Shown here: one piece after another, positions 5,073 to 57,286 of the stretch
Layout of the letters: the number at the start of each line of letters is the position of its first letter
Position numbering within the stretch: position 1 is the stretch's first letter
Source: a virus
Strand: one strand, 5' to 3'
IMG/VR virus record: IMGVR_UViG_3300024346_000007
DNA length: 64,000 bases
Position numbers and translations under genes: made by a program
Notes under the pieces: generated by a model
The model's database searches: none
What the model was told of the DNA's origin: nothing
The model's input: the letters and a program-made list of their open reading frames with translations, nothing else

Positions 5073-5081
5073 TATAAATAT
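5073..5081 (-). promoter_or_regulatory. Putative late promoter ATATTTATA upstream of the fibre gene
   Basis: TATAAATAT on + strand, 32 nt upstream of the ATG at 5040; the motif recurs before about 16 minus-strand gene starts. Confidence 0.65.
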
Positions 5082-9484: not shown

Positions 9485-11113
9485 TTAGATAGAGGCTAGA
9501 TCAGCTACTGCTATCTTTCCGAAGAATTCAGCACGCAACATTTTCTTAGCATACCTAGTCATCAGACCTTTCCTTGGTGTGAAAGTTTCTGGATCGTAGA
9601 GTAAAGGAGTCATGATCAATGGAATATAAGGAGCGAACACAGCACCTGTTTCAAGGAACTGGCTGCCTTTATAAGCCAAAAGAACAGTGTTTTCATTCAT
9701 GTATGGGTTAACATACACTTTGTAACGGCTATTCAATTGACCAGCTTTGTGTGAACCCATTGCAAACTCTTCTCTGCTACCATCGGTATCAGCGGCATAG
9801 CCAGGGATAGATTCGATGATTGTAGCGATAGAAGGTCCGCACATGATAACGTTAGCTTGTCCACGAAGAGTCTTCTTGTGAATAGTACGAGCTACGCTTT
9901 GGATCTTTGTACCCAATGTAGCAAACCAGCCACCTTGTGTATTGTAGAATCCAGTTGAAGGAGCAGTCCAAGTTCCAGTTGCTTTATTGTAGAACGTATT
10001 GTTCGCAGCAGACCAGAATTCGGTAGTGTTTGCATTTTGGATCAACATGTCGATGATCTCAAGATCGATTTCAAGAGAAATGTACTCAGAAAGAGTTGAA
10101 GTCAATTCAGCTTCAGCATCCAAAGATTGGTATGCGTTCAAATCTTGACTAAATTCCGGAGTCCACTTAGCTTTTAATTTCCTTGTTTTAGCAACAACTG
10201 CCTCAGAACGCATTTCTACGTTGATTTCAGGGATTGCATTAGATCCAGTTAATGGGCTAGATGCTGCATCTTCGAAGTCACCACGGCTGTTATCAGCAGG
10301 TTGCTTTTGATAGAATACTGCTCCAGAACCAGATCCAAGGTTTACTTGACCTGCAGAACCAGATACAACGAAAGAAAGAGTGCCGTTAGAAGCGTATGAA
10401 GTAAACTCAGCAAGCAAGTTGCTTTCGTTAACACCGCTACCAGTTACAACAAATCCACGAACACCGTTAGTATCCATACCAGAAAGCGCAACAGTTGCAG
10501 TTGTGATAGACAACTTACGTAGTTGACCAGCAGCTGCAGAAGCACTGTAAAGAGAATTGAAGTTAACGTCAGCTGCAGATGCAGTTGTGATTACATAGTT
10601 AGCAGAAGCAGAAGCTTCGTTAATTGAGTAACCGAAACGACCAGCACCATAAAGACCACCAGAAGGATCAACATCTTTAACGTTGGTTGTACCATACATG
10701 CTATCACCAGAAGTAAATCTGTTAGCTTGTGCTGTACCTGGTACGTTAGTACCATACTTGAATTCAAGGAAGAATACAAGACCAGCAGGGAGGGTCATTG
10801 GTTGTACACTAACAAATTCTTTAGCAGAAATGTCAGCGAAGATCTTACGCACGAGCGGAAGAGCTACACCAGCCCATTGTTCACCAGAACCAACGGTAAA
10901 AGAACCACCAGTACCAGTTTGAGATTGTTCAACCATAAGCTGTTTAGCTTGGTTTTCGAGGATGATAGCCATACGCTCTTTGCCGTATGGTTGCTTTGAA
11001 AGGTCATTACCTTCCAAAAGACCAGTTTCACCCCACTTCTTAACTAACCTTTGGGCTTCCGTCATTTGGGAAGCGTAAGGATTAGAACTTTCTAAGAGAG
11101 ATTGTACGTTCAT
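9485..11113 (-). CDS. Major capsid protein (T4 gp23-like)
   Basis: LENQ, LPLVRK, VSVQPMTLPAGLVF, AKTRKLKAKWTPEFSQDL, APYIPL, FTPRKGLMTRY motifs. Confidence 0.97.
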   Translation of the reverse strand: MNVQSLLESSNPYASQMTEAQRLVKKWGETGLLEGNDLSKQPYGKERMAIILENQAKQLMVEQSQTGTGGSFTVGSGEQWAGVALPLVRKIFADISAKEFVSVQPMTLPAGLVFFLEFKYGTNVPGTAQANRFTSGDSMYGTTNVKDVDPSGGLYGAGRFGYSINEASASANYVITTASAADVNFNSLYSASAAAGQLRKLSITTATVALSGMDTNGVRGFVVTGSGVNESNLLAEFTSYASNGTLSFVVSGSAGQVNLGSGSGAVFYQKQPADNSRGDFEDAASSPLTGSNAIPEINVEMRSEAVVAKTRKLKAKWTPEFSQDLNAYQSLDAEAELTSTLSEYISLEIDLEIIDMLIQNANTTEFWSAANNTFYNKATGTWTAPSTGFYNTQGGWFATLGTKIQSVARTIHKKTLRGQANVIMCGPSIATIIESIPGYAADTDGSREEFAMGSHKAGQLNSRYKVYVNPYMNENTVLLAYKGSQFLETGAVFAPYIPLIMTPLLYDPETFTPRKGLMTRYAKKMLRAEFFGKIAVADLASI

Positions 11114-28298: not shown

Positions 28299-28329
28299 CA
28301 AAGATACGACTAAATATCTTTTCTCCAAA
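28299..28329 (-). promoter_or_regulatory. Bacteroidota-type housekeeping promoter for primase
   Basis: Minus strand TTTG(28329-28326)-N19-TATCTTTG(28306-28299), ending 4 nt before the ATG. Confidence 0.7.
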
Positions 28330-28744
28330 ACTTACCGAGAATGTTATCAACATAGCAGTTTGTAGACTCTAAGCACCCATTTATAATCTGGTGTCTTAGC
28401 TCTTGGTATGTCATCTGTTTCTTGTGGGTACATATGTGCATTATCTCCCTAATAAAGGATTCTTTACCTAGCTCCTTTACATCGACCTTAAGAGCTGCGT
28501 TAGACCCGTAATAGGTCTTCCAATCGCTTTCAGAGACTACCTTCTTTTTAGTAGGTTTCTTACCCTTACCGGTATGCTCTGATAGCTCCTTTTTTGTTAG
28601 AGGTTTATTCCTCTCTGATATTAGATTCTTTCTGCCTATGTAGAATTTGCCCCCGTCTATCTTTCTTATCTTATAGATGAAACCGTATGCATTTTCTGGA
28701 AACTGAGAGATGTCTGTTATAACCTGACCTTTGTAAAACCACAT
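28310..28744 (-). CDS. GIY-YIG family nuclease
   Basis: GFIYKI...FYIGRK, WKTYYGS, FIREI motifs. Confidence 0.75.
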   Translation of the reverse strand: MWFYKGQVITDISQFPENAYGFIYKIRKIDGGKFYIGRKNLISERNKPLTKKELSEHTGKGKKPTKKKVVSESDWKTYYGSNAALKVDVKELGKESFIREIMHICTHKKQMTYQELRHQIINGCLESTNCYVDNILGKFWRKDI

Positions 28745-28745: not shown

Positions 28746-29045
28746 TTATATATCCATTCTAATTAAGAAATTCGTATCTGTATTTGCTGATATCGGCACT
28801 GGCTGTGCAAACTTAGCTACCATCAATAAATCATTAGCGTCATTATAAAACCCTACTGCACTTGCATATGGCATGAAATCAGACCCTGTTGCAAAAGCTA
28901 ACATAGTTTCTTCGCTTCCTGAATTTAATAAAGATGGGTTGTAGCTATAGTTCATCTCATGATCTTTAATAGTACATTTTATAGTACGTTCTATAATCAT
29001 GTGATTATTAGTAAAGTTAAGTTTAAAATCTTGATAAGTTATCAT
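28746..29045 (-). CDS. Stand-alone C-terminal domain of a baseplate/tail structural protein
   Basis: NYSYNPS...VGFYNDANDLLMVAKFAQP matches the C-terminus of 38627-39655 (NYTTNPS...IGLYNDANELLAVAKLSKP). Confidence 0.75.
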   Translation of the reverse strand: MITYQDFKLNFTNNHMIIERTIKCTIKDHEMNYSYNPSLLNSGSEETMLAFATGSDFMPYASAVGFYNDANDLLMVAKFAQPVPISANTDTNFLIRMDI

Positions 29046-29057: not shown

Positions 29058-30098
29058 TTAGCCACATGTTCCAGGACTCACACTAGTACATGTATTAACA
29101 GATACTACTCTTCCTGTAGGAATTACAACAGCAGAATAACCATTTCCCATATTTCCTACTCTAGTTATTCTGTGATACAATCCGTCTCCTCCAGTCCATA
29201 AAGTATATGTTGTTCCAGATTTAGTGTATAAATACTGGGCTACCAGTAGATTTTCATTTGAAACTGTTGCGTATACTGTTGTTGTTGGTAATACTGTAGA
29301 ATCACAAGCGGCTCCACAATTTGCATAACCAACAGAAGATATAGAGTAATCATAATAAGTGACATCAGAACAGTTATACGAGGTAGATAGGCTTCCTCCG
29401 TTGACTACAGATACCCCATTTACTTTTGTTATTGTTACAGTAGCTTGACCGTTTGTAAAATTTGATGCTAAATTATTAGTCCTGTAAACTAATATGTAAT
29501 CTTTGTATCCTATTGATGGGGATGTAACTGTCGTAACTTGTGTATTTGTTAGAGATGTTGGTATTCCAGCTAAAGTTACACTAGCGTATGAAGATGTTAC
29601 CACTGTTCCTAGTGCTGGAATTGATGCAGGCAGCACCGTCTCGTACAATATGCCGGATATAGAAGCACTTACAGAGTTTATACTAGTTATAAATTGTTGA
29701 GAAGTTACTGTAAACTCTACTGTTGTTCCTGCTGGTGCTACTAGCCTTGACCATATTCTGCCGCCACTTCCACAGTTATTACTGCTATTTGTAAAATTAC
29801 TATCGAAGTATATAGGAGCTTGTGTCGGAGTTGGAGATACCGTAGGGGTTGGAGTTATTGTGGGAGTTGGTGTGGGAGTTGGAGTAGACAGATTTATGTT
29901 TAAAGAAGTAGTACATGTGCCGATAGACGTAACAGTTATAACAGTAGCGTTTACATCTACATTTACAGGATACCCTGCTAATAGCTGTGATCTAGTGACA
30001 TTCATTGCAACCACTCCTAATACATTATCAGATATGTTAAAAGGTCCTGCTGAGGCTCCTATACTTGATACTGTTACTGTTATTGATTTAGTAGACAT
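29058..30098 (-). CDS. Mucin-like virion protein (anchor domain, TP linker, Cys-containing beta domains)
   Basis: STPTPTPTPTITPTPTVSPTPT linker; N-terminal AGPFxI...VTRSQLLAGY domain. Confidence 0.7.
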   Translation of the reverse strand: MSTKSITVTVSSIGASAGPFNISDNVLGVVAMNVTRSQLLAGYPVNVDVNATVITVTSIGTCTTSLNINLSTPTPTPTPTITPTPTVSPTPTQAPIYFDSNFTNSSNNCGSGGRIWSRLVAPAGTTVEFTVTSQQFITSINSVSASISGILYETVLPASIPALGTVVTSSYASVTLAGIPTSLTNTQVTTVTSPSIGYKDYILVYRTNNLASNFTNGQATVTITKVNGVSVVNGGSLSTSYNCSDVTYYDYSISSVGYANCGAACDSTVLPTTTVYATVSNENLLVAQYLYTKSGTTYTLWTGGDGLYHRITRVGNMGNGYSAVVIPTGRVVSVNTCTSVSPGTCG

Positions 30099-30119
30099 TT
30101 TTTATTTTTATTATTATGT

Positions 30120-30854
30120 TTAGACCTGTGCGCTTCCACAGATTAAAGCCCTATCAGTATTAGCATTAACAGTAACGGAAGAAATAGAACTACCGCCAAC
30201 ACTAGCAGGACAAGTGGCGGTAGTAGAGACACCGGTATAGTACACAAGAGTCTCATCTGATCCATCAGCAACACAATAATACACTGTAGTGCCTGGGGCA
30301 ACCGTAGCTAAGTACTTAATAGTACAATTAGATGCTAATGCCGATCCTCTTCTAGTCCAACTACCAGGGTCTCCAGTTGGAGAAGTCCATACAGCAACAG
30401 CGTCAATTGGTGCATCTTCTACATCAAATTTAGCATATATACTAAGCGTATAGGTTGTTACTGTTGGTGTTGGGGTTGGTGTTGGTGTAGCTGTTGGTGT
30501 TGGGGTAGCTGTTACTGTTGGTGTTGTGGTAGGCGGTGGTGTCGGCTCTATAACAGACCCTCCAGATAGAGAACAATCTACTACTACAGTAGGGGTTGGG
30601 GTTGGTGTAGGGGTGACTGTAGGAGTTGCAGTCGGAGGTTTTATATAATAGGTAACATAGTTATTACATCCTGAGTCCGTATTAAATACTATTATGCTAT
30701 TTGCTGATGAAGGTATTCCTGTTACGTTGTAGCCTGTCAAAAGATTACTTCTGGACACACCAGTGTCTAACTGAGTACCAACTGATATACTGTCGTAGTA
30801 TATGTCAAATGGCCCAGCAGCATCCCCAGAAATAAAAACTTGATAGTTGTTCAT
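30120..30854 (-). CDS. Mucin-like virion protein with two Thr-Pro tracts
   Basis: AGPFDI...VSRSNLLTGY domain, PTATPTVTPTPT repeats; late motif at 30859-30867. Confidence 0.7.
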   Translation of the reverse strand: MNNYQVFISGDAAGPFDIYYDSISVGTQLDTGVSRSNLLTGYNVTGIPSSANSIIVFNTDSGCNNYVTYYIKPPTATPTVTPTPTPTPTVVVDCSLSGGSVIEPTPPPTTTPTVTATPTPTATPTPTPTPTVTTYTLSIYAKFDVEDAPIDAVAVWTSPTGDPGSWTRRGSALASNCTIKYLATVAPGTTVYYCVADGSDETLVYYTGVSTTATCPASVGGSSISSVTVNANTDRALICGSAQV

Positions 30855-31942
30855 ATATTATAAATATTTTCTTTCTGGCTTTTATGTAAAGCAGAAGCCA
30901 CAACTTGGTGCATATCATAATATTTGTAGTCTGTAAGCCTCCCACCAAAGATGTATTTTGTCTCTTTGTCCATCATCTTTTTATAATTTTGGTACAACAA
31001 GTTATTAGTATCATCATTTATTGGGTAATATGGATCTCCTGTGGATTCTGGGTACTCAAATGTTACCACAGTATTCTTTTGTTTTCCAAATTCAAAATGT
31101 TTATGTTCTACTATCCTAGTAAAAGGCACTTCCTCATCAGTATAATTCATACCAGCAACACCTTGATAATCAGACATATTTAGTCTTATAGTATCAAATC
31201 TGAGGCTTCTATATTCTAACTTTCCGTACATATATGAGTAAAATCTATCTATGGGGCCTGTATATATGATTTTCTTACATATATCGTTAAAATAGTCCTT
31301 GTTGTTAAAATAATCAGTATCTAGGCGTACTTCTATGCCTGATAATAGGTTTTCAAATATCTGTGTGTATCCGCCTATTGGTATTCCTGAATACGTGTCT
31401 TCGTAGTAATTATCTTCAAAAGACATTCTTATAGGAAGCCTTCTTATTATGCTTGTCGGTAGCTCTTTTGGGTCTTTTTTCCATTGTTTTTTGGTGTACC
31501 CCTTCACAAATATATTGTACAGTTCAGGGCCTACTTGAGATAGAATCCACTCCTCTAGGTTCTTTGGGTTTGGTATATCTACTTTAACATCCTCTAGCTT
31601 TCTAAAAGCCTCATCTGGAGTTGTTACTCCATATACCTGATATAGAGTCATGAGATTTATAGGGAATGAGTATACTTTTCCTTTATAATTTACTTTAGGC
31701 CTGTAGCTAAAGTTATTAAACGTAGCGAATCTATTCACATAGTCCCATATCTTTTTATCTGATGTGTGGAATATATGAGGTCCGTATTTGTGAACATTTA
31801 TTCCATCTATATTCTCCGTATAGCAGTTTCCTCCTATATGAGATCTTTTTTCTACAACAAGGCATTTGTACCCTTTGTCCGTCATCTCTCTTGCGAAGAT
31901 AGACCCAAATAATCCTGATCCTACTATTAAATAGTCGTACAT
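30851..31942 (-). CDS. glf: UDP-galactopyranose mutase
   Basis: YDYLIVGSGLFG FAD motif, HIGGNCY, HKYGPHIFHT, FTRIVEHKHF, PYYP, GRLTDYKYYDMHQ. Confidence 0.97.
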   Translation of the reverse strand: MYDYLIVGSGLFGSIFAREMTDKGYKCLVVEKRSHIGGNCYTENIDGINVHKYGPHIFHTSDKKIWDYVNRFATFNNFSYRPKVNYKGKVYSFPINLMTLYQVYGVTTPDEAFRKLEDVKVDIPNPKNLEEWILSQVGPELYNIFVKGYTKKQWKKDPKELPTSIIRRLPIRMSFEDNYYEDTYSGIPIGGYTQIFENLLSGIEVRLDTDYFNNKDYFNDICKKIIYTGPIDRFYSYMYGKLEYRSLRFDTIRLNMSDYQGVAGMNYTDEEVPFTRIVEHKHFEFGKQKNTVVTFEYPESTGDPYYPINDDTNNLLYQNYKKMMDKETKYIFGGRLTDYKYYDMHQVVASALHKSQKENIYNI

Positions 31943-31947
31943 ATTAT

Positions 31948-32553
31948 TTATTTCTTCTTTAAAAAATATCTAGCAGTATTACAGATATTAGCATTTAGCA
32001 TTATTTCGTATCCTGGGAAGTATTGCTTTATATATTCTGCGTCTATTAATCCGTGAAACTCTATATCTACCCACCTAATCTGCTGTAAGTAATTAGAATT
32101 TTCAATAACATTAAACTCTCCTCCTTCAATATCCATTTTAAGAAAATCTACTATCGGTAGTTCTAGTTCTTCTAAGGTTTTTATTTCTACATTAAAAAAA
32201 CTGGTATTAACATAAGAACTTTCTCTTAGGCTATGGCCTCCAACATTATTAATATCTTCCGCCAAAACTCCAGAAGTGAAGTTATATCCAATAGCTGTCT
32301 TATATAAATTACTTTTGTTTTTAATGTGATTTTGTAAAAAAGTAAAATTGCCTTCTTCAGGCTCTATTAAATAAGCATCTTGTAGGGTAGGTATTTGTTC
32401 AAATAAAATATTAGAAAACTCACCTATGTTCGCTCCTACATCAACATACGAAATAATTTTATTTAACTTCAGAGTAGTTATAAGAGCTATAAAATAAGGC
32501 TCTTCAGTTAGTTCTTTTCTAGTATGATTTATGTGCCCTTCTCTAGTAAGCAT
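31948..32553 (-). CDS. FkbM-family methyltransferase
   Basis: VDVGANIG, IEP, DFLKMDIEGGE, IEFH. Confidence 0.9.
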   Translation of the reverse strand: MLTREGHINHTRKELTEEPYFIALITTLKLNKIISYVDVGANIGEFSNILFEQIPTLQDAYLIEPEEGNFTFLQNHIKNKSNLYKTAIGYNFTSGVLAEDINNVGGHSLRESSYVNTSFFNVEIKTLEELELPIVDFLKMDIEGGEFNVIENSNYLQQIRWVDIEFHGLIDAEYIKQYFPGYEIMLNANICNTARYFLKKK

Positions 32554-32620
32554 TTGTATTATTTTAATATGTCTAGTTAATTTATATTGTGATAATTACA
32601 ACATATTTTACATTGTGTAT

Positions 32621-33394
32621 CTAATATTTTATAAAGTTATCGCAATATATATCTTTTGTATCTAAATTATTAGCGGCTGGTCCAAACCAAGTTTTAGGTG
32701 CTATTATTTTTTTATTATCGTTATTTGATAACCAAGATCCCCACCAACTATAGCTGCTATTTGCTATTATATGATCATGGCATTTAGATATTAAACACAT
32801 GTCATATATCGGACTATTAGAATTAAATACTATATTTTTTCTTTTAAGGTTTTCTTCACACCAATTTTTATCATCAGATGTACATATAAAGATTGTATTG
32901 CCATCATCTAATGTGTCCATGGATTTATTATAATAGTCTATTGTACACAATGGATGATACTCAGTATTAAATAGATATCCAGCTCTCCTTACATGTAAAG
33001 ATACTAATTTTTTATTTTTAAATTGATTTATATAGATATCAACTTCTTTTACTGTATCCTCTTTAAAAGTAAACTCCTTCTTAACAATAGCAGAACAGTG
33101 TTTAAAATACTTATCTGTTTGAAAATATCCTTCAAAGTCTGTATCTTCTTTTATTTCAAAAACTCCCTCATTATAAGAAAATTCAATTTCTTTGTACAAA
33201 TTATTTGGTTTAATTGTTTTTTTTACAAACTCTTTTAAATCAAAAAATTCAAATAAATAACAATTTTTTACTATTTCTGGGTCTATTGCTATTCTGGCGT
33301 TTAATTTATATTTTATACCTAATAGAAGGGCATATTGAAACATTTGATTTCCTAATTGTCCATATACTCCAAGTTTACTAAAAGACACTTCCAT
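32621..33394 (-). CDS. Alpha-1,2-fucosyltransferase (GT11)
   Basis: GQLGNQMFQYA, GYFQ, SLHVRR, SDD, IIANSSYSWWG, IIAPKTWF. Confidence 0.93.
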   Translation of the reverse strand: MEVSFSKLGVYGQLGNQMFQYALLLGIKYKLNARIAIDPEIVKNCYLFEFFDLKEFVKKTIKPNNLYKEIEFSYNEGVFEIKEDTDFEGYFQTDKYFKHCSAIVKKEFTFKEDTVKEVDIYINQFKNKKLVSLHVRRAGYLFNTEYHPLCTIDYYNKSMDTLDDGNTIFICTSDDKNWCEENLKRKNIVFNSNSPIYDMCLISKCHDHIIANSSYSWWGSWLSNNDNKKIIAPKTWFGPAANNLDTKDIYCDNFIKY

Positions 33395-33396
33395 AA

Positions 33397-34083
33397 TTAT
33401 AAAATCATGTTATTATCATACCTTGCTTGCACAGATGGGTAGTAATCCACTTGAGTCTCTTCTAGGGTAGAATACCCTGGGATTTGCCAAGCTAGATTTT
33501 TATTGCACATATATAAATTATTTTGATGGTCTAGGGCTAGATCATGATAGCATATGTCAATTACCGGTATATGTTTAAACGGTATTTTTAATATTTTATC
33601 ATAAAAATGATTATTAACTGCATATGCATGTGCTGATAGTGCGCCTAATGACCTGCCTAGGTTATCTGTTACCTTTTGGTATATTAATGGGTTACAACCT
33701 ATATAAAACATATCCCATCTTTCCCTTATCTTTAAGTCTTCTATTGTTTTAGATAACTCCTCTATTATATCATCATGTAATGTAACATCATCTTCAAAAA
33801 TTAGTACATTTTTATACTGCATTAATTTTGCTCTAAGTACTACATTTATGTGTGATAAAGCACAAGATTTTGTAAACCTGGCATGTTCAGGTCTTTCATC
33901 GTTTCTAAAAAAACAACCATCTTGTTTAATACTTTCATTTTGTTCAGGAGATAGTGTTATTGCTGGGAATCTTTCTGCTTTTATGCCAAACTTAGAAAAT
34001 AATTTTTCTATATGGTCTTTTCTATCTGTTCTCTCTTCTAGATTTATGTAGAATATTTTATCAAAAAAATCAAAAGGATTCAT
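33397..34083 (-). CDS. Glycosyltransferase family 25
   Basis: YINLEERTDR, ERFPAI, CALSH, LIFEDD, AHAYAV motifs. Confidence 0.88.
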   Translation of the reverse strand: MNPFDFFDKIFYINLEERTDRKDHIEKLFSKFGIKAERFPAITLSPEQNESIKQDGCFFRNDERPEHARFTKSCALSHINVVLRAKLMQYKNVLIFEDDVTLHDDIIEELSKTIEDLKIRERWDMFYIGCNPLIYQKVTDNLGRSLGALSAHAYAVNNHFYDKILKIPFKHIPVIDICYHDLALDHQNNLYMCNKNLAWQIPGYSTLEETQVDYYPSVQARYDNNMIL

Positions 34084-34088
34084 ATTTT

Positions 34089-35225
34089 TTAAAATTTATT
34101 TATAAAATCAATCCACATTGGACCTATCTTTTTTATGTCAAAGTTTTCAAAAATATAAGATATACTCTTATCTCTCATACTTTCTTTTAATTCTATGTTC
34201 TCTTCTATCTGTTTTACTTTTTCTACAATATTATCTATGTAATCCATCTTAGGCTCATGTGTAACCCTCTCACTCATCATTCTTTCCATATCTATATTCG
34301 GAGGAAAATCTAGCTTATAATAATATCCTCCATAATACTCTTCATGGGATCCTAAAGGATATGATACTACTATTACTCCCATACCTAAAGCCTCTCCCAT
34401 TGCACAAGAGTGAACATCTTTATACACATGTTCATTTGGAGTGTATTGTGGGAATATAAAATAATCACTCGTGGCTAGTTCAGTAAATAATGTTTCTTTA
34501 TCTATCCCATTTCCTAAATTAACATAGTCAAATGCTACAAAATTTTCATCCCATCCTAACTCTTTTACAGCCTTTAAAGCTACATCTCCTCCTCTAGACC
34601 ATTGAGCTGGGAACACTACTTTCTTATGCTTTCTTTCTAGTTTCTTATCCAACACTTCTTTCATTACATCAAGTGTCATTGGATTAGGTATAACAGTTTC
34701 GTATACAGTTGGTATATTTTCTTCTAAGTATTTTATATTTTCTAAATGATGCTCTCTAGCCCATTTTGATATATTAACATATCCAACTTTTAAATTATGT
34801 TTAATTGCATAATCTTTTAACTCTGCCATATAATATCCCCATGATAGATGACACCAATAAAAAACTCCTCTTTTTATTTTTGCATTCAAATTATCATACT
34901 CACCAAACCATAAACAGTTGACCAGTATGTCAAAGTTAACATCTTCAATACCTTCTAAATTTGGTATATAAGTATATGTTACCCCGTTAACAATTTCCTT
35001 ACCTGGATTAAAGGTATACCCTCTATTGTTTCTATCTTCTTTTAGATTATCTCCTGACTCTTCTACTGCTACTACTACTTCATGGCCATTATTTGCTAGA
35101 TATTCTGCAACAAGTATGCTAGAGGTGTCAGTACCTGATAAACCCGCCTTGTCATATCTCATTTTATGACCGGTTATAAAATTACTTCTTGACCCGTTTC
35201 CTGTTACAACAAATAATATTCTCAT
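34089..35225 (-). CDS. GT-B fold (GT4-like) glycosyltransferase
   Basis: MRILFV...SGTD...LAxxGHEVVV N-terminus; DYFIFP...CAMGEALGMGVIVV donor-binding region. Confidence 0.75.
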   Translation of the reverse strand: MRILFVVTGNGSRSNFITGHKMRYDKAGLSGTDTSSILVAEYLANNGHEVVVAVEESGDNLKEDRNNRGYTFNPGKEIVNGVTYTYIPNLEGIEDVNFDILVNCLWFGEYDNLNAKIKRGVFYWCHLSWGYYMAELKDYAIKHNLKVGYVNISKWAREHHLENIKYLEENIPTVYETVIPNPMTLDVMKEVLDKKLERKHKKVVFPAQWSRGGDVALKAVKELGWDENFVAFDYVNLGNGIDKETLFTELATSDYFIFPQYTPNEHVYKDVHSCAMGEALGMGVIVVSYPLGSHEEYYGGYYYKLDFPPNIDMERMMSERVTHEPKMDYIDNIVEKVKQIEENIELKESMRDKSISYIFENFDIKKIGPMWIDFINKF

Positions 35226-36475
35226 ACATTAATATCTTTTTCGTATCTATCACTCCACTTTTTTTCTTCATCAAACATGTACATTACTATCTTACCTGGT
35301 TTGTCTTGAGAGTCTATTGTGACTGTATATTCATTTTTTGTAAGGTTAACATACTCTGGTTGCGTGTCTACATTAAAATCTTTTCTATGTAATTCCAATC
35401 CAGATTTTGTTTGTATTCCGAGTGTTATGAATTGGGGACTTTTAAATTCTAAATTTTTGAAAAACTCTATATCCCAGTCAACTGTTACATCGTATTTATA
35501 TGTCTTAAACTGTTCTTCCCAATCTATTGGGTTTGGCGGTTCTTTAACTTTAATAGTGTAGTCTTGTATTCTACAATTTTTAAAATCAAAACCTCCATAT
35601 ACTTCGTAATCATGTAAAGTTCTGGCTGTTCCTAATCCGTATATACCCATATCTATTCCATGATCTTCTTGACCAAATAGTTGCCTAGTCTTATTTCTGG
35701 CATATATATCTCTTTCTCCTGAAGTCTTTTTTGTGGCGCTTTCTAAACCATGATCTTCCCAATGTTTACGCCTATAATTCCTAGTGTATTCGTGCCACAT
35801 AACCATTCTATATGGGCTGTACATATCATATCCGTGCGTAAAGGCTCTTACGCTTAACGTAGTCTCCTCAGTATATCCACCAAAATAAATGTCTGGGTCA
35901 TACCTAACTTCGTCTATAAATTTACCGTCTACAAAATAAAAATGACCGCTGATAGTTCTTGCTTTTATTACTTTGGTTCTCTCCTTATAATCCTGAATAT
36001 ACCACGGCATGCTCATTAAAAGCTTATCATATGAAAACTCATACTGGGACATTAAAGATGGCAATTTTTCATAACTACATCTGCACTCTTCTGGATCAAA
36101 CGGAGTACAGTATGTGGTAATAATAGGCTTTTCAGACACTTCCAAAGCCTGTGCATAGTCTTCCATCATTATCTCATCCCACCCATCAACAAACCTATGA
36201 TGACTGTCTATTTGTAATGTGTATTTCTCTCCATCATACAAGCTGTTGGTGACGTTTCTAGCCCATCCTAATCCTGCACTCTCGCTATAGTGGTATTTTT
36301 TTATACGGAAGTTTGGCTTATCATCAAAGATTTCGGTATCTTCTTCTTCATCGTATTGCCAGCATATTCCAAATGTAAGTCGTTCAGGGTTTTTAGCCCT
36401 AGATAGCATGTCATCTATAGTAAGTATTAATTGTGGGTCCCTATAGCTTGCTATCTGTACAAATATTTTATCCAT
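35222..36475 (-). CDS. GT60-family polypeptide alpha-GlcNAc transferase (Pfam GlcNAc-like)
   Basis: IFVQIASYRDP, GLGWAR, YTLQIDSHHRF, ITTY, YDPDIYFGG.EE, RAFTHGYD, WHEY, YGLGTARTL motifs. Confidence 0.88.
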   Translation of the reverse strand: MDKIFVQIASYRDPQLILTIDDMLSRAKNPERLTFGICWQYDEEEDTEIFDDKPNFRIKKYHYSESAGLGWARNVTNSLYDGEKYTLQIDSHHRFVDGWDEIMMEDYAQALEVSEKPIITTYCTPFDPEECRCSYEKLPSLMSQYEFSYDKLLMSMPWYIQDYKERTKVIKARTISGHFYFVDGKFIDEVRYDPDIYFGGYTEETTLSVRAFTHGYDMYSPYRMVMWHEYTRNYRRKHWEDHGLESATKKTSGERDIYARNKTRQLFGQEDHGIDMGIYGLGTARTLHDYEVYGGFDFKNCRIQDYTIKVKEPPNPIDWEEQFKTYKYDVTVDWDIEFFKNLEFKSPQFITLGIQTKSGLELHRKDFNVDTQPEYVNLTKNEYTVTIDSQDKPGKIVMYMFDEEKKWSDRYEKDINV

Positions 36476-36497
36476 AACACTTTTTTAAAAATAATGA

Positions 36498-36505
36498 CAA
36501 ATATA
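36498..36505 (-). promoter_or_regulatory. Possible Bacteroidota -7 element upstream of the glycosyltransferase operon
   Basis: TATATTTG on minus strand, 22 nt before the GT60 ATG; no clear -33 TTTG. Confidence 0.4.
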
Positions 36506-36548
36506 GTATTTTTTACACACTTTACTACATTTTTACTATAATATTATA

Positions 36549-38609
36549 TTAGGATCCCTCACCACCGCAGCTTACACAATTAAATGCCCCTGTTGGTGTT
36601 GCAGTAAAGTTAGTTCCATCTCTTGTAAATTCTCTAGAGTCTGCCCCATCAGATAACCAGAAAGTTCCGTTATTATCAACTTCAGCATCAAAGCAAGCCT
36701 GGCTAGACACTAGTATAAATATGTTAGTGCATAGACACAGTGTAGCAGTTCCTCCAAATGATAAATTAACATTGGTACATCCTAAGACCACATTACACGC
36801 ATCTGCCGGTGTATTTGCTGATAAACTATACACTATAGGCACAGGTGTTGGAGTAGGAGTGGGAGTGGGTGTAGGAGTAGGTGTAGCTGTTGGAGGTTCA
36901 GGGGTAGGTGTAGGGGTAGGTGTAGCTGTAGGTGGTAATGGGGTAGGTGTAGGTGTAGGAGTAGGAGTTGCCGTTGCTGGTATAGGAGTAGCTGTAGCTG
37001 GCAACGGAGTTGCCGTTGCTGGTATAGGAGTAGCTGTAGCTGGCAACGGAGTTGCCGTTGCTGGTAATGGAGTAGGGGTAGCTGGCAACGGAGTTGCCGT
37101 TGCTGGTAATGGAGTAGGGGTAGCTGGCAACGGAGTTGCCGTTGCTGGTAATGGAGTAGGGGTAGGAGTGCCGCAGTTAGTTTGGTTTTGTAAGTTTCCA
37201 GCAAAAGCAGATGTATTCCAATAATTAATGCCATTAGAATAGAATCCATCTCCTACAGGGCTTGTTAAGCCGCTATCCTGATACAATATAACTCCGTTAG
37301 CCAAAACAGATGTTCCTGGTGCCGCATAATAGGTATTTGTAAATAAAGTAGGGTACCTACCACATGCCTCTAGGCCGCTAAGACTGCTATACGCTAATAA
37401 GAAAGAAGTGTAAGCAGGAGTTGGCGTTGGTGTAGCTGTTGCTGGTAAAGGAGTAGGTGTAGGAGTAGGAGTAGCTGTAGCTGGCAACGGAGTTGCCGTT
37501 GCTGGTAATGGAGTTGCCGTTGCTGGTAATGGAGTAGCTGTAGCTGGTATAGGAGTGGCCGTTGCTGGTAGTGGTGTAGCTGTAGCTGGTAGTGGTGTTG
37601 GAGTAGCTGTTGATGTTGGAGTAGGAGTAGCTGTTGATGTTGGAGTAGGTGTAGCTGTTGGTGTTGATGTTGGAGTAGAAGTAGGCGTAGGTGTAGGAGT
37701 TGGGGTTAAGTATATAGCATATACTATAAACTTACACAGTGGTTTAGAAACCTTAGCTTCTATAGTTGCATAGTTTGATTTAAGAATACAGCTACTACCA
37801 GAGATACTAGTAGAGAATCTATACTTAGTTGTATAGGTTCCTATAACACTACTATTTAGAGTTACAGTTCCGTTACCATTATTAGAAAAATAAGAAACAT
37901 CAGAGCCTGACAACTCTATTGATCCAGTCAAAGCAGTCCATCCTTTAGTATTATCATTTACTAAAGGACTTATTATTTTAGGAGACGTAGAGGATGAAAA
38001 AGATATGTAATCATCCTTTGCATATGGAGGTATTGGAAATATACTCTGATAATCTGGGTGGGTGATTATTATCAACCCATGCTCATAAAATATATTACCA
38101 ACTAAAGTATTTACTGCTGCGACATCATATATGTTACCTTTTCCATCATCCTGTAAATTCATGAAGGATGTAGATATATTAAAGGATATTTTTTTTACTG
38201 ACGTGCTGAATACCTCTTTAGATATGGATAATACTTTAATGGTGGCATCAGATCCACTAGGAAAATCTTTGATCATATACCCTTGAGGAGTATAATCATA
38301 ATAGGACCCAGAAGGCCTATATATAGATGCGCTAGCGTAGTTTAATGATTCTAAATTTGATGAATTATCTAGATAAGACCCAGAAAATGACTGATAATAC
38401 AAATGGTTTACTGAATCATAAACCAATCTATCGTACTCATTATTGGTCTTGATATCGTTATTATAGTCGAATATACTGCCGGTTTTTACACCATTGTATA
38501 CTCTAATTCCATAAGACTCTAAATCACATACACTAACACTCCAATTTTTATTTGCTAAGTATGGAATGTTAGCTATATCTGACTTATATAAACGTTTGTA
38601 TGCCGACAT
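36549..38609 (-). CDS. Virion structural protein: conserved N-terminal domain, Ig-like domain and long mucin-like (PLPATAT/PT)n stalk
   Basis: DDGKGN...VGNIFYEHGLIII N-domain; PPYAKDD...LVND Ig-like module; two tracts of about 100 aa of Pro/Thr/Ala with Cys-rich modules. Confidence 0.8.
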   Translation of the reverse strand: MSAYKRLYKSDIANIPYLANKNWSVSVCDLESYGIRVYNGVKTGSIFDYNNDIKTNNEYDRLVYDSVNHLYYQSFSGSYLDNSSNLESLNYASASIYRPSGSYYDYTPQGYMIKDFPSGSDATIKVLSISKEVFSTSVKKISFNISTSFMNLQDDGKGNIYDVAAVNTLVGNIFYEHGLIIITHPDYQSIFPIPPYAKDDYISFSSSTSPKIISPLVNDNTKGWTALTGSIELSGSDVSYFSNNGNGTVTLNSSVIGTYTTKYRFSTSISGSSCILKSNYATIEAKVSKPLCKFIVYAIYLTPTPTPTPTSTPTSTPTATPTPTSTATPTPTSTATPTPLPATATPLPATATPIPATATPLPATATPLPATATPLPATATPTPTPTPLPATATPTPTPAYTSFLLAYSSLSGLEACGRYPTLFTNTYYAAPGTSVLANGVILYQDSGLTSPVGDGFYSNGINYWNTSAFAGNLQNQTNCGTPTPTPLPATATPLPATPTPLPATATPLPATPTPLPATATPLPATATPIPATATPLPATATPIPATATPTPTPTPTPLPPTATPTPTPTPEPPTATPTPTPTPTPTPTPVPIVYSLSANTPADACNVVLGCTNVNLSFGGTATLCLCTNIFILVSSQACFDAEVDNNGTFWLSDGADSREFTRDGTNFTATPTGAFNCVSCGGEGS
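36840..37706 (-). repeat. Coding tandem repeats (21/42-bp units, PLPATAT and PT) in two tracts, about 36840-37170 and 37414-37706
   Basis: Near-identical copies of gctggcaacggagttgccgttgctggta. Confidence 0.9.
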
Positions 38610-38626: not shown

Positions 38627-39655
38627 TTAAAATTCTAATTTGACTCTACATGTTATCTGCTTGGTGAAATCTTTTGGCAAAGGTTTACTTAATTTAGCAA
38701 CAGCCAAAAGCTCATTAGCATCGTTATATAATCCTATAGTTGTAGGAAATACCTGCGGATTGTCAATTAGTATTGAGTATAGTACATTTCCATTCTCATC
38801 TATAATAGATGGGTTTGTTGTATAGTTTAACTGAGAGCTTTTTGCATTTACAAAGAAGTATCTAGATGATATAGTCTCTTCGCTTTTTGCTTGAAATAAT
38901 GATCCAGAATTGATTACTCTATATAATCTATCTGCATTTATATTATATACGGCTGTATATGATTTTGCATTTGTTTCGTCTATAGTCATTCCTATTCCTC
39001 CGTTAGCATATGATAGAGCCAGAGCTCTTGGGTTTAGAATATAAACCCCCATATCTGGGAAGAAGTATCCGTAGCTGCCGCTATCGGTCTGTATTGATGA
39101 TGTATTGTAGCTGCTACCGTTTGATCCGCTTACAATATAGTACACTCTATTTCCACCAATAAAACTATTTACAGAAGTGTCTTTACTATTGTCGGTCAAG
39201 TATATATAGCTACTACCATTCTTTAGAGCTAAGTTCCAAGTACCTGTATTAATCTTTTCTTTATATCTAGATCTATTTACATTTATTGCAAATATGTCTC
39301 TAGATACACCTCCATTTCCACCGAAATTAAACACACTGCCTTCATCTCCGTACACTAAGTTTCTAAACTGTCCGTATATATCTCTGGTAGGAGTTTTTTC
39401 ATCTACTAGGCTATTAAATACAGCAGATCCGCTACCTGATATATGTCCATAGGCAACAGAATATTGTACCTCAGACCCATCACTTCCGTATAGAAGGTTA
39501 TATACATTTAGATAATACTTTCCAGTATTATCAGTTTGTTGAGTACTAGCTGTGTATGATGCTGTTAGATTGTATACGTTAGCCGTCCATATAGGGGCCG
39601 TTATAGCCTCTGAACTTATTACACTATCATCATCTTGAAATGGTATGAATGACAT
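38627..39655 (-). CDS. Baseplate/tail structural protein
   Basis: IYGQFRNL, IGLYNDANELLAVAKLSKP; inside the baseplate operon. Confidence 0.7.
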   Translation of the reverse strand: MSFIPFQDDDSVISSEAITAPIWTANVYNLTASYTASTQQTDNTGKYYLNVYNLLYGSDGSEVQYSVAYGHISGSGSAVFNSLVDEKTPTRDIYGQFRNLVYGDEGSVFNFGGNGGVSRDIFAINVNRSRYKEKINTGTWNLALKNGSSYIYLTDNSKDTSVNSFIGGNRVYYIVSGSNGSSYNTSSIQTDSGSYGYFFPDMGVYILNPRALALSYANGGIGMTIDETNAKSYTAVYNINADRLYRVINSGSLFQAKSEETISSRYFFVNAKSSQLNYTTNPSIIDENGNVLYSILIDNPQVFPTTIGLYNDANELLAVAKLSKPLPKDFTKQITCRVKLEF

Positions 39656-40314
39656 TATTTATTCTTTTTTACAGTTAATGGAATAGTAATTCTAGCACCT
39701 GAATCTCTTCCTACTACAGTTATGGTTGTGCTAAGACTTGTTAATGTGCTACCAAATAGGGTATCTATTGTGGTACCTACCAAAGTAAATGAAGTTCCAA
39801 TGGCAGTCTTGCTTATTTGAGTTCCCGTAGTAGTGTTTAAATCAGATATGCCAAGATTAGTCGTGTCTATTCCTATACCTGTAAAGGTAGACAATAATCT
39901 TGCATCTCCAACAGTTACTACATATCCGCTAGGTTCGAATGTAGATGTAGCTCCTAAATAGTTCAAAGTCTGTGGAGTTATCACTATTGAAGCCGCTTGC
40001 TTAAGAACTATGCTAGCATACCCTACATTTATAACTGGGAGTTTGCTTGTTCCTCTAGGAAGTGTTACCAACTTATATTTCATAATTTGGTTCTCATCTG
40101 GGAATGCTTCTAATAGGGGTAGGTTTTCTATAGCTTCTCCATAAAAAGCCGAGCCTGAGGGGTGTGTTGTATTATACAACGTATAATCTATCTCATCATC
40201 AGCCATTGCAAACTGTGTAATCCTGAATGACCCATCGTTCCTGGCTAGGAGTTCCCTGCCTTTTTTAGTCAAAATTGCATCGACAGTTACTACATTATTG
40301 TTTAAATATCCCAT
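39655..40314 (-). CDS. Virion structural protein
   Basis: MGYLNN...DAILTKKGRELLA...ITQFAMADDEIDY motif; late motif at 40331-40339. Confidence 0.7.
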   Translation of the reverse strand: MGYLNNNVVTVDAILTKKGRELLARNDGSFRITQFAMADDEIDYTLYNTTHPSGSAFYGEAIENLPLLEAFPDENQIMKYKLVTLPRGTSKLPVINVGYASIVLKQAASIVITPQTLNYLGATSTFEPSGYVVTVGDARLLSTFTGIGIDTTNLGISDLNTTTGTQISKTAIGTSFTLVGTTIDTLFGSTLTSLSTTITVVGRDSGARITIPLTVKKNK

Positions 40315-47219: not shown

Positions 47220-47678
47220 TTAATAAGCAGAGTATGCTGCTTTACCGTTTACTTTAGTAGCACGTAGTATTTGTTTTCTTTGCTTTCCTGTTGACTCATA
47301 AGACACATGTACCCAATCTGGGTTGTCCTTAGTTCCAAACTCCCATATAAGTTGATCAAACACAAGATTATCCTTAATATAATCAAATATTTGCTTATTA
47401 GTTACAGAGGTGCCATCCATATCCAGATCAAGGGCTTCTCCCTGGCAATGTTGAGAGGTCAAACTTCCCCCAATAGCAGCATTGAGCTCCTTACTTCTGT
47501 ATCCAGAAGAGATGTGTATAGGCACTTTAAAATGCTCACGGATTGGCTCAAAAACCTTTTCAGCTATCAGTTTAAAATTTTCTATGTGTTGAGGAGTTGG
47601 CATATTGCTTATTCCTTTTCTTTTTGCTGATTCACTCCTGGTTACCTCTGCTAGTACCAAATGTTTAGATAATTGCAT
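47220..47678 (-). CDS. Peptidase M15A, probable endolysin
   Basis: ISSGYRSKELNAAIGGS.TSQHCQGEALD...WVHVS. Confidence 0.9.
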   Translation of the reverse strand: MQLSKHLVLAEVTRSESAKRKGISNMPTPQHIENFKLIAEKVFEPIREHFKVPIHISSGYRSKELNAAIGGSLTSQHCQGEALDLDMDGTSVTNKQIFDYIKDNLVFDQLIWEFGTKDNPDWVHVSYESTGKQRKQILRATKVNGKAAYSAY

Positions 47679-47690: not shown

Positions 47691-49586
47691 TTAGTATGTT
47701 ACAACTCTTCCGTAGATGTCAGTATTAGGATACCTAACTTCAAAAATAGATGGATCCAAGCTAGGGTATATTATATTATTTTTGGTTGCGCCTTTAATAT
47801 CATACCCATATTTTGAATATCCATTTACTTCTCCGTATTTATTTACTATCTCAACTTTTATTACACTCTGAACTCCTTTTATGTTTCCACAACTTATTAT
47901 GTTGGTCAGTTCTGATAAAAGTATCGGTTGGTTTATCTGCCACTTATCTATGTTGAAATAGTCTCTTACTGCATTTAAACATTGGTTTAGCACTTCCCTG
48001 CTATTGTATGAAGGCAGTACTACTACATCGAAATTTATTCCTATGTTTATATAGTATGCATTTTTTATAGCTATAGCATCTGTCATTATCTTATACTGAG
48101 ATATATAGTTTTTTAAATTCTCCTTTACTGCTAAAGAAGCCTCAGTTAGTCTCTTGTTTGCATCATAAGATAATACATAAAGACTCAAAGCCAAAGGATT
48201 ATTGTCTATATAATCCGGCATGGTATCTGTTTGACCTAGCGCAAGATCTTGTGTAATATAAGCCTTAGCTACTGTACCAAACTTAGGCGGCATACTCAAT
48301 GCCCTTATAATATGATCTTCTTTGGTTACATTTCTAAGTTGTGTAGGAAAGCTTGCCATTGTCTTAAGACGAATATCTTCAACAGTGTCTCCGTCACCTC
48401 CACCAGAGGAAGGGGCGTCATTGTTAAAAGATACCGATCTTTGTATATATCCCAACAGTCCTTGATTTAAAGTAGTTGGGTTTAGGGATACTGTTGTTGT
48501 GTTTACCTCATACACCTGCGATATATCATTGGATGGTACGTTTGTTTGTGCGCCACCTCCCACTATATACCTTACAGTCAGGGTAGTGTTGTTTGGGGCA
48601 AGACCATAATCCTTTGTGTATATAAAGTTAGAAGGATCATATGCGGCATATACTTTAGATATGGAGTCTATGAGGCCCATACCTACATTATCTGGATTTG
48701 GTAATATCTCTTCGTCAGGGTTTCCAGATATACCGGATCCAAACTCTATTGATAATTGACTTGATTCATTGTATCTGCTTACAAATCTCCTGCTAACTTT
48801 TTTTAATCTTAGCAGGTACGGGGTAGTATTGTTATATTGAGATAAGAATGGATCATTAAGCTCATTGTTCTTTACTTCTTGGAATACAGTATTCTGAGCT
48901 AAGTATGGTACCTCATACCACTTGTTACCATCGCTATCTATGATATCCAATATTTGTATTACATTGGTATCTTGTAGAGTAACGCTGTCAAACTTAATAG
49001 CTGTTCCAAAAGTGAAGTCTTGAGATTTTATAGTTCCAGCTATTGCTTTTACTTTTTTCTTTAGTAAGTAATACTCCGGTTGGTTTGTGCTATTGTTTAT
49101 TTGAAATACACTGACATCTGTTGTATCGAAAGAAGAAGAAAAACTAAAGTCTACTGAGTCTTGAGTTACAAACACTACATCACTGTTGGTAAATGATTTT
49201 ACCTTTGCTTCTTTATCAATTATTAAAGAATATGAATAATCAGGAGAAGCAACACTTGAGTTTATTATTGCAGGTATTTGTTGGTATACATTTAGGTCTA
49301 CAGTAGCTGTGCTAACTACTTTTGGTTTGTAGCCTAAGGCGTATGCCATGGACATAAGATTTTGCTTATCTTGTGCAAATAGAAGAAAGTTTTCTTGAGT
49401 TTGCTTATCTACGTAAAAAGATAGAACATCCCCTACATACGAAGCCATCTCAATAAACATGTTCCCAGGAGTTGCCTCAGTGAAGTCATTGTATACCGTT
49501 GGGAAATAGCTTTTGGCATATTCTACTAGCGCCTCTTTGAAGCTGGTAAAATCTTTGTTTATATACTTTATGTCCTTTTGTGTCAT
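47691..49586 (-). CDS. Baseplate wedge protein (gp6/BaseplateJ-like)
   Basis: YINKDF, ASYVGDVLSFY, LGYKP, IEFGSG, VRYIVGGG, RNVTKED motifs. Confidence 0.85.
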   Translation of the reverse strand: MTQKDIKYINKDFTSFKEALVEYAKSYFPTVYNDFTEATPGNMFIEMASYVGDVLSFYVDKQTQENFLLFAQDKQNLMSMAYALGYKPKVVSTATVDLNVYQQIPAIINSSVASPDYSYSLIIDKEAKVKSFTNSDVVFVTQDSVDFSFSSSFDTTDVSVFQINNSTNQPEYYLLKKKVKAIAGTIKSQDFTFGTAIKFDSVTLQDTNVIQILDIIDSDGNKWYEVPYLAQNTVFQEVKNNELNDPFLSQYNNTTPYLLRLKKVSRRFVSRYNESSQLSIEFGSGISGNPDEEILPNPDNVGMGLIDSISKVYAAYDPSNFIYTKDYGLAPNNTTLTVRYIVGGGAQTNVPSNDISQVYEVNTTTVSLNPTTLNQGLLGYIQRSVSFNNDAPSSGGGDGDTVEDIRLKTMASFPTQLRNVTKEDHIIRALSMPPKFGTVAKAYITQDLALGQTDTMPDYIDNNPLALSLYVLSYDANKRLTEASLAVKENLKNYISQYKIMTDAIAIKNAYYINIGINFDVVVLPSYNSREVLNQCLNAVRDYFNIDKWQINQPILLSELTNIISCGNIKGVQSVIKVEIVNKYGEVNGYSKYGYDIKGATKNNIIYPSLDPSIFEVRYPNTDIYGRVVTY

Positions 49587-49984
49587 TAGGTTATTTGTAT
49601 TAGTATTGTATCAGCATCTTTTTTTATAGAGTAGTCTAACTTTATATTAAGCAGATTTCTCTGTAGATCAGCTGTGAAATCTAAATTATTAACAGTTATC
49701 ATTGGAAAATATAAACCTAAGTCATCTAAAAGAACTTCTTTTGCATTTGTAAAATCATAAGTCTGATCAAATAATAGTTTCCTTAAATCAGCTCCGAACT
49801 CAGGATTAAACGGCCTCTCTCCTTTGTTTGTTAGCATGTAGTTAGTTAGGTTACTTTTTACTTGATCTTTAGTATTATAGTTTATAGTGAATACATTATG
49901 AGTATTAAATGGCAGTTTTATGCCAAGACCCCTATTTGGATTCCTAGCACTGCTATCTACCGTATACTCTATGCGTCTTCTCAT
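49586..49984 (-). CDS. Baseplate wedge subunit (gp25/GPW-like)
   Basis: LTNKGERPFNPEFGADLRKLLFD. Confidence 0.9.
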   Translation of the reverse strand: MRRRIEYTVDSSARNPNRGLGIKLPFNTHNVFTINYNTKDQVKSNLTNYMLTNKGERPFNPEFGADLRKLLFDQTYDFTNAKEVLLDDLGLYFPMITVNNLDFTADLQRNLLNIKLDYSIKKDADTILIQIT

Positions 49985-57018: not shown

Positions 57019-57286
57019 TACTTACAAAGAATTGCAGCAAAATCTTAATGAAATCATTGATTTATCTGATAATTTAGAGCTAACATTGTTTACTTTCGAG
57101 CTATTAGACTGTATTTGGGCTGATATTATTGAGGAAGATAATGAAGAAATCACCAATTCTTTGATAGAAGCCTATGCAAATGAGGTCAGAAACTCAATAG
57201 AAATAATGAATCCTGACCTCAAAATTGATATAGAAACTCTTGAAAAAGTACTAAGAGAGCTAGATTTTTATCTAGAAACTAATTAA
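57011..57286 (+). CDS. Acidic hypothetical protein
   Basis: 91 aa, overlaps the upstream stop. Confidence 0.6.
   Translation: MSDTYKELQQNLNEIIDLSDNLELTLFTFELLDCIWADIIEEDNEEITNSLIEAYANEVRNSIEIMNPDLKIDIETLEKVLRELDFYLETN

Follow-up and report, generated by a model that had tools for sequence, protein, structure and literature searches.

A GT60-led candidate mucin-type O-glycosylation island in the tail-fibre slot of a T4-like phage

The island and its place in the tail-fibre slot

The IMG/VR virus record IMGVR_UViG_3300024346_000007 provides a stretch of 64,000 nucleotides, which was analysed as a whole and is called the window here. It comes from a T4-like myovirus and codes for a Gp23-type capsid protein (9485-11113), a portal, a large terminase and baseplate wedge proteins, with almost every gene on the minus strand. 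The subject of this text is an island at 29058-38609 in which sugar genes are found together with proteins that contain long threonine/proline (Thr/Pro) tracts. A sequence-only reading had interpreted it as a candidate mucin-type O-glycosylation system, with an initiating glycosyltransferase of family GT60, further sugar enzymes and their protein substrates side by side. All nine open reading frames (ORFs) named in that reading exist where it placed them, on the minus strand. They are co-oriented in one tight array with gaps of -4 to 73 nt, including 4-nt overlaps between the stop of the GT60 gene and the start of the GT4-like gene, and between the stop of the Glf gene and the start of the Thr/Pro-tract gene TP244. 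The description of the island as the end of the baseplate operon is correct, because the baseplate wedge genes lie upstream of it at 47691-49984. The nearest cultured relative is Flavobacterium phage immuto, with 49% identity in the terminase and 67% in the tail protein p219, and only this 49%-identical terminase of a Flavobacterium phage suggests a host among the Bacteroidota. A megablast search of the island against 50,697 phage records gave no match, and a terminase-based search for relatives reached close relatives only, on short fragments. Genome-wide statements in this text concern the genomes of relatives and not the full genome of the source phage.

A Thr/Pro tract was defined strictly as at least 80% threonine plus proline across 16 residues. 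There are three such tracts in the ORF at 36549-38609, two in 30120-30854 and one in 29058-30098, and these three proteins do flank the sugar genes as had been proposed. The tract scan adds a fourth ORF at 57283-58065, the only further one within the window, and the Gp23-type capsid protein is not among the four. Each of them contains 30-140 residues of serine/threonine/proline (S/T/P) tract. At the DNA level, the tracts are imperfect tandem repeats with units of 6 to 63 nt; as an example, one 42-nt unit is present in 4.8 copies at 97% match. TP686 (36549-38609, minus strand) is a modular fibre protein that starts with an anchor domain (residues 1-186), and its tracts of Thr/Pro and 'TPLPATA' at about residues 301-398 and 481-596 (DNA 37416-37709 and 36822-37169) set two small Cys-containing globular modules apart. 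TP244 (30120-30854, minus strand) consists of an N-terminal adaptor of ~70 amino acids (aa), two tracts (DNA 30447-30641) and a C-terminal globular domain, and TP346 (29058-30098, minus strand) of an N-terminal adaptor, one tract (DNA 29823-29891) and a distal domain of 250 aa. The two are paralogous in the ~70-aa adaptor, and other fibre-slot proteins, in relatives, also begin with an adaptor of this family, after which an S/T/P-rich linker always follows. Neither TP686 nor TP346 has a Pfam or PHROG match, TP244 has a single weak match to a PHROG family of unknown function, and tblastn of the TP686 N-terminal domain against the same 50,697 phage records found no match. The fourth protein, TP260 (57283-58065, minus strand, 260 aa), ends in an Lcl_C domain (PF07603, E 2.5e-12), which is a domain of the Legionella collagen-like adhesin family.

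The surroundings of the island are conserved. Relatives of p219 are encoded in at least 481 viral stretches, and 80 loci taken from these form the backbone-selected set, in which the kept gene order is bpw132-bpw631-p366-p110-p1805-p219-p342-(variable)-p99-p144-primase. In the window, the variable slot is bounded upstream by p342 and p219 (38627-40314, minus strand), which are conserved tail or baseplate-distal proteins. At the opposite end, the island is delimited by p99 (28746-29045, minus strand), a stand-alone C-terminal module that the C-terminus of p342 (38627-39655) resembles. In most relatives the slot is nearly empty, with one protein of 310-350 aa after the p342 homologue (for example in L083, L094, L109 and L116). 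The N-terminal ~190 residues of this single protein match residues 1-186 of TP686, and p99 is matched by its C-terminal ~95 residues. What simpler relatives encode as one gene is split here, with ~7.5 kb of sugar and Thr/Pro genes between its parts, and the N-terminal domain of TP686 is the conserved anchor of the slot. In immuto, the equivalent slot holds genes annotated as tail fibre and tail spike. On sequence grounds, the slot content of the relatives and the fibre and spike genes of immuto point to the island being an insert in a host-recognition cassette, that is, in a variable tail-fibre slot. The backbone order, the slot of immuto and the anchor domain of TP686 bear out that the Thr/Pro proteins stand in the tail-fibre slot of this phage family.

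The GT60 enzyme and its partners

The lead gene of the cluster (35222-36475, minus strand) codes for a putative polypeptide N-acetylhexosamine (HexNAc) transferase of the GT60 family. It matches the Pfam family PF11397 ('GlcNAc', equal to CAZy GT60) with E 8.5e-61 and 206.8 bits (cut-off 21) over profile positions 2-45 and 98-351. A GT-A catalytic domain (residues 1 to ~320) is followed by an FN3-like beta-sandwich (324-417), and both the putative metal-binding motif D90-x-H92 and H228 are invariant across 13 GT60 homologues. The AlphaFold2 model has a pLDDT (predicted local distance difference test) of 84. Its top 29 structural matches in the PDB are all polypeptide N-acetylgalactosamine (GalNAc) transferases (Z 19.2-23.0), with 261-281 residues aligned over model residues 1-323, and the next structural family is LARGE1 with Z 16.6. 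Folded alone, the C-terminal domain gives generic FN3-like matches (Z 6-7.5) and is not a ricin-type lectin domain. The sequence-only reading had taken this enzyme for the initiator, and it is indeed a soluble GT-A protein whose nearest solved folds are those of mucin-type initiators. It has matches (E <= 1e-5) in at least 3,900 protein clusters. In three viral contigs (L044:8111-10855, L045:1680-4799 and L046:4448-7567), a GT60-like domain is part of proteins of 914-1039 aa, with another GT60 nearby that stands alone, has 316-334 aa and lacks the C-terminal beta domain.

Every characterised GT60 enzyme acts on a polypeptide, moving alpha-linked N-acetylglucosamine (GlcNAc) onto hydroxyproline of Skp1 or onto Thr of Trypanosoma cruzi mucins (PMC6939170). 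Gnt1, the founding member of PF11397, accepts hydroxyproline only, and the next sugars of the Skp1 glycan are beta-galactose (Gal) and alpha-1,2-fucose (Fuc), which resembles the pair of GT25 and GT11 enzymes encoded here (PMC6939170). The phage enzyme might thus run a Skp1-like hydroxyproline-GlcNAc-Gal-Fuc pathway on the prolines of the tracts, which make up half of the tract residues. This is improbable, and it is weakened because PF13640, the prolyl hydroxylase family, is absent from the relatives G002 (complete) and G004 (80% complete); among G001, G002 and G004 it is present in G001 only. No gene of the PF13640 type turned up among the ~45 window ORFs scanned against Pfam or PHROGs, a result that concerns this one family of phage genes and leaves room for other 2OG-oxygenase families or for host enzymes. 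Threonine is kept here as the probable acceptor in an O-glycosylation cassette.

The six sugar genes are contiguous, as had been claimed, and the family assignments hold on Pfam profiles for GT60, GT25, GT11, FkbM and Glf; the GT4-like assignment is weak in Pfam, with a sub-threshold match that is backed by PHROG and language-model data. This gene (34089-35225, minus strand) codes for a GT-B glycosyltransferase with a PF13439 match of E 1.3e-3, below the cut-off. It belongs to the glycosyltransferase family phrog_2170, its neighbours in a language-model Atlas carry Glycos_transf_1/GT4, and these features support a predicted GT-B/GT4-clan enzyme. In all close-relative loci long enough to show it, this gene is the next one downstream of GT60. 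Next come a GT25-family glycosyltransferase (33397-34083, minus strand; PF01755, E 2.4e-16) and a member of the alpha-1,2-fucosyltransferase family GT11 (32621-33394, minus strand; PF01531, E 1.3e-25; phrog_2644, E 4.9e-72). Among solved sequences, the GT25 protein comes closest to Mimivirus R655 and to the human protein-acceptor enzyme procollagen galactosyltransferase 1, with weak E-values of 5e-4 to 1e-3. They are followed by an FkbM-family methyltransferase (31948-32553, minus strand; PF05050, E 2.6e-12) and by Glf (30851-31942, minus strand; PF03275, E 4.2e-75, plus NAD_binding_8), a UDP-galactopyranose mutase for the supply of UDP-galactofuranose (UDP-Galf). Across relatives, the conserved core is GT60 plus the GT4-like gene, usually with Glf, which is present in most GT60 clusters including minimal ones of just these three genes. 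GT25 and GT11 are often present in GT60 loci yet variable. FkbM is variable too, and the FkbM of the window has no BLASTP match (E <= 1e-5) in any of 46 loci selected by GT60. The glycan originally drawn for this phage, Thr-GlcNAc-Gal-Fuc/Galf with possible O-methylation, is not supported and rests on family names; a GlcNAc-Galf-type core is at most a reasonable guess.

Using the Kyte-Doolittle scale with a 19-residue window, no hydrophobic segment above the threshold of 1.8 was found in the six enzymes or in the Thr/Pro proteins, and none of them has an N-terminal signal peptide. Because of this lack of signal peptides and membrane segments, the enzymes would encounter their candidate substrates in the cytoplasm, where phage proteins are expected to assemble.

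The cluster can also be read as remodelling, in the course of infection, a surface glycan of the host, such as lipopolysaccharide or lipooligosaccharide (LPS/LOS), capsule or another glycoconjugate, for instance to block superinfection. This is the usual assumption about GT11, GT25 and Glf genes of aquatic phages. According to the Pfam family descriptions, GT25, GT11 and Glf are classic LPS/O-antigen families, and that they are typical of such clusters counts against an O-glycosylation cassette. Similar gene sets in cyanophages have been interpreted in terms of host glycans (PMC12801897), and in one clade of relatives including jumbo phages the cluster is found away from structural genes. Such a role is weakened because the island lacks a membrane-linked initiating enzyme, a flippase and a polymerase: a Pfam search of the island genes for hallmarks of LPS, O-antigen or capsule synthesis (membrane-linked initiator, flippase, polymerase, Gtr-type enzymes) found none, and the six enzymes include no initiating phosphoglycosyltransferase and no membrane segment. 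It is also at odds with the polypeptide acceptors used by the family and the nearest folds of the lead enzyme, and it leaves the association with Thr/Pro tracts unexplained. We consider it unlikely.

Phage glycosyltransferases often glycosylate DNA (PMC12619734), and the enzymes could in principle hypermodify the phage genome with glycans as a protection against restriction. This possibility is the least likely of those considered and is weakened because neither G001, which is complete and GT60-positive, nor G004 has a member of PF00303, the thymidylate-synthase/hydroxymethylase family. To our knowledge, no GT60 or GT27 enzyme acts on DNA, and DNA modification, too, does not explain the Thr/Pro association. 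With GT60-led soluble enzymes packed among Thr/Pro fibre proteins in the fibre slot, the phage probably sugar-coats its own fibres.

Co-occurrence of GT60 and Thr/Pro tracts

The GT60-selected set contains 46 viral loci, 43 with a GT60 identity of 56-92% and three at 33-35%. A Thr/Pro ORF is present in 29 of them, compared with 11 of the 80 backbone-selected loci (Fisher p 2e-8). Within this set the GT60 and GT4-like genes are always neighbours where the locus reaches far enough, and the Thr/Pro ORF is mostly found beside the cluster. It occurs in at least four genomic contexts: within the tail-fibre slot, flanked by primase and terminase, next to structural genes of other kinds, or on the downstream side of the GT4-like gene. 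In the GT60 tree, the Thr/Pro-adjacent state is scattered over nearly all deep branches.

Complete genomes give the same picture. (TP)x4 tracts are found in all five complete GT60-positive genomes (G001, G002, XacN1, Xoo-sp13 and RAS14) and in none of seven complete GT60-negative ones, namely five of the same family, immuto and Mel-JY01 (p 0.0013). Four GT60-negative and two GT60-positive genomes were reassembled from 20-kb pieces, and every ORF was scanned for S/T/P tracts. The four GT60-negative relatives, complete and with 183-237 ORFs each, showed no such tracts save one 17-residue Thr/Pro window, whereas there are five tract-bearing ORFs in G002, four in G004 and four in the 64-kb window. 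The co-occurrence of GT60 with (TP)n proteins that had been expected in related phages is thus found both locally and genome-wide, and it extends over divergent GT60 lineages of phages and bacteria. Cultured phages with both features are XacN1, Xoo-sp13, RAS14 and CM1. In the Xanthomonas phages XacN1 (L047) and Xoo-sp13 (L450), which are jumbo phages, a 765-aa carbamoyltransferase directly follows GT60, and XacN1 has a (TP)x4 tract in the 3,313-aa ORF325, ~9 kb from GT60 and beside a GT9-family gene.

A sample was also drawn in the reverse direction, from viral contigs picked solely by a (TP)x6 DNA pattern, with contigs containing collagen-like repeats as the control. Among contigs of at least 30 kb, PF11397 was found in 9 of 36 with (TP)x6 and in 1 of 36 controls (p 0.014), and a GT60 gene was found in 9 of 120 (TP)x6 stretches and in 0 of 119 controls (p 0.003). 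The GT60s of these stretches are mostly zero to two genes away from the Thr/Pro ORF and have 27-42% identity to the GT60 of the window. In these data GT60 predicts Thr/Pro tracts; many complete Thr/Pro phages have no GT60, and a need of the tracts for GT60 does not follow.

The main rival to O-glycosylation is coincidence of linkers with lineage. The tracts would then be plain, unglycosylated flexible linkers, their link to GT60 would come from shared ancestry, habitat or host clade, and the sugar cluster would have some other target. In its favour, PF11397 is absent from five of six complete (TP)x6 viral genomes, and GT60 is missing from the contigs L070, L082 and L139 (15-20% complete), which do encode Thr/Pro fibre proteins. 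Neither habitat nor host is matched in the collagen-repeat control, the samples are small with few complete genomes, and the rows are related to each other and so not independent phylogenetically. It also counts against a glycosylation cassette that the co-location of enzyme and substrate, which the sequence-only reading regarded as the mark of the system, is frequent and not universal, as adjacency fails in 17 of the 46 GT60 loci. Most of these 17 belong to one clade including jumbo phages, where the cluster lies among small non-structural genes. G001, a complete genome of 335 kb from this clade, has its eleven (TP)x4 sites at a distance of over 100 kb from the GT60 cluster, while G002, complete at 257 kb and from a sister clade, has a Thr/Pro ORF beside GT60 and sixteen such sites genome-wide. 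On the side of the enzyme, sequence and profile searches of GT60 against the PDB gave no match to a solved GT60 or Gnt1. What speaks against plain linkers is that complete GT60-negative genomes of the same family, with the same slot, lack S/T/P tracts where the positives have four to five such ORFs, and that an adjacency of zero to two genes recurs with GT60s of only 27-42% identity, and adjacency also in bacteria of several phyla. We regard coincidence as unlikely, though as the least unlikely of the alternatives.

Bacterial chromosomes commonly encode full-length GT60 homologues, for example those of Acidobacteriaceae, Verrucomicrobiales and Alphaproteobacteria. Of 80 such loci, 26 contain a Thr/Pro ORF, which in 20 cases is no more than 2 kb away from GT60; this count has no base-rate control. 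In chromosomes of Acidobacteriaceae (L489-L531), an ORF of ~340 aa about 1.1 kb from GT60 starts with a lipoprotein-like '...GCGGSS' followed by TPTPTPTPTP. This suggests a pairing of enzyme and substrate like that proposed for the phage, there with an exported bacterial lipoprotein.

Candidate mechanism, known systems and neighbouring genes

Taken together, the island is best read as a phage-encoded, cytoplasmic, mucin-type O-glycosylation cassette in the fibre slot, started by GT60 and acting on the phage's own Thr/Pro linkers, to which we give a probability of roughly 0.62. We infer the donor sugar, the acceptor residue, the order of the enzymes, the structure of the glycan and the benefit to the phage as follows. 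The soluble GT60 would put a first HexNAc, most likely alpha-GlcNAc, from a UDP-sugar onto Thr of the tracts, its substrates being the Thr/Pro linkers of TP686, TP244, TP346 and probably TP260; TPTPTPTPTP and TPLPATATPLPATA are candidate acceptor peptides. The GT4-like partner would attach the second sugar, which may be Galf supplied via the co-conserved Glf, and GT25, GT11 and FkbM would be lineage-variable decorators. Glycosylated linkers could form stiff, protease-resistant stalks that hold the small distal modules off the baseplate. The interpretation given by the sequence-only reading thus stands as far as the enzyme families, the soluble mucin-initiator-like fold, the fibre slot and the co-occurrence are concerned, and it is not supported for the detailed glycan or for the idea that the glycans bait the Sus systems of the host.

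A wider version of this reading can be put forward only tentatively, as something a little less likely to be right than wrong. It is possible that cytoplasmic GT60 O-glycosylation of Thr/Pro stalks is old and widespread in tailed phages and many bacteria, and that many aquatic and soil phages have a self-made fibre 'glycocalyx'. As part of the same tentative claim, structural modelling would make GT60 the nearest prokaryotic and viral structural cousin of the animal polypeptide GalNAc-transferases, and the minimal core of GT60, GT4-like enzyme and Glf would by analogy recall the GlcNAc-Galf core of T. cruzi mucins.

The protist GT60s (Gnt1 and the enzymes of T. cruzi and Dictyostelium) share with the phage enzyme the full-length PF11397 domain, the GT-A fold and the D-x-H motif. 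The phage GT60 is soluble like Gnt1, and it is paired with Thr/Pro repeat proteins like the mucin-type enzymes of T. cruzi and Dictyostelium. The mucin glycans of T. cruzi carry Galf, and Glf is present with the phage GT60 as it is in T. cruzi. Unlike the protist enzymes, the phage GT60 is encoded by a bacteriophage and has an extra FN3-like C-terminal domain, there is no PF13640 prolyl hydroxylase in G002 or G004, and its partners (GT4-like, GT25, GT11 and FkbM) differ from PgtA and AgtA of the Skp1 pathway. The GT27 GalNAc-transferases of animals and Toxoplasma, which are the closest solved folds, likewise carry an accessory domain C-terminal to the catalytic one, and dense Thr/Pro tandem repeats as likely substrates are a further likeness. 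Sequence identity to them is only 11-16%, however, and the phage enzyme is not a GT27 in Pfam or CAZy. Their ricin-type lectin domain is replaced by an FN3-like sandwich in the phage protein, which is cytoplasmic, while GT27 enzymes are type II membrane proteins of the Golgi.

Among phages, virion glycosylation has been described for mycobacteriophages (Freeman et al. 2023, Cell Host Microbe 31:1216, as cited in PMC12619734), where, in the account given in that citing paper, the glycans are at the C-termini of capsid and tail tube subunits. As there, the glycosyltransferase genes of the present phage lie beside structural genes, and their products would modify the phage's own virion proteins in the cytoplasm. 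The candidate sites are different, namely Thr/Pro linkers inside fibre-slot proteins, with a GT60 as lead enzyme. Bacteria offer another comparison. In secreted bacterial glycoside hydrolases, such as the cellulases of Cellulomonas fimi, glycosylated (PT)n linkers between modules resist proteolysis, and (PT)n between globular modules is what the phage proteins have in common with them. Those hydrolases differ in being secreted host proteins modified by host enzymes, and we know of no dedicated GT60 gene for their Pro/Thr linkers.

No paper was found on GT60/PF11397 in phages or on glycosylated Thr/Pro linkers of phage fibres. Virion glycosylation, documented in few phages only (the mycobacteriophages), and mucin-type initiation by GT60 in protists are already known, mucin-type initiation being regarded as eukaryotic; the pairing of a phage GT60 with Thr/Pro proteins is what no paper was found to describe. 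If the proposed cassette is real, a very common gene of metagenomic phages would gain a function, and glycosylation would be predicted at the Thr/Pro linkers of phage fibres. Host recognition, resistance to proteases and grazing, and the stickiness of particles would then have to be viewed with glycan coats in mind, and the result would bear on an evolutionary link between GT60 and GT27.

Concerning the expression of the island, scans for sigma-70 promoters and for terminators gave chance level only, and the T4 late-promoter motif TATAAATA is not positioned upstream of island genes. The same motif (on the plus strand; TATTTATA on the coding strand) immediately precedes many minus-strand genes, sitting in short intergenic gaps, for example at 5073, 8698, 9417, 12361, 17492, 19389, 22618, 24694, 26791, 40331 and 61157. 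With 26 matches in the window against 14 expected, it may be a promoter element of the phage. Since no intergenic gap between 40331 and 26791 contains it, a single transcription unit may extend from the tail-distal genes through the island to the first genes on its other side (p144, primase and p182). A search of the 64-kb window for tRNA genes found none.

Two neighbouring genes deserve mention. The first is p144 (28310-28744, 144 aa), a SegE-type GIY-YIG endonuclease (PF19835, E 1.7e-27). In most relatives, too, it borders the variable fibre slot. The label "NAD synthetase" attached to its PHROG family and to the homologue in immuto is probably an annotation error passed on between records. 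The second is a 152-aa endolysin-family protein (47220-47678; phrog_894, E 2.1e-35), which sits inside the baseplate module and is probably a tail-associated lysozyme.

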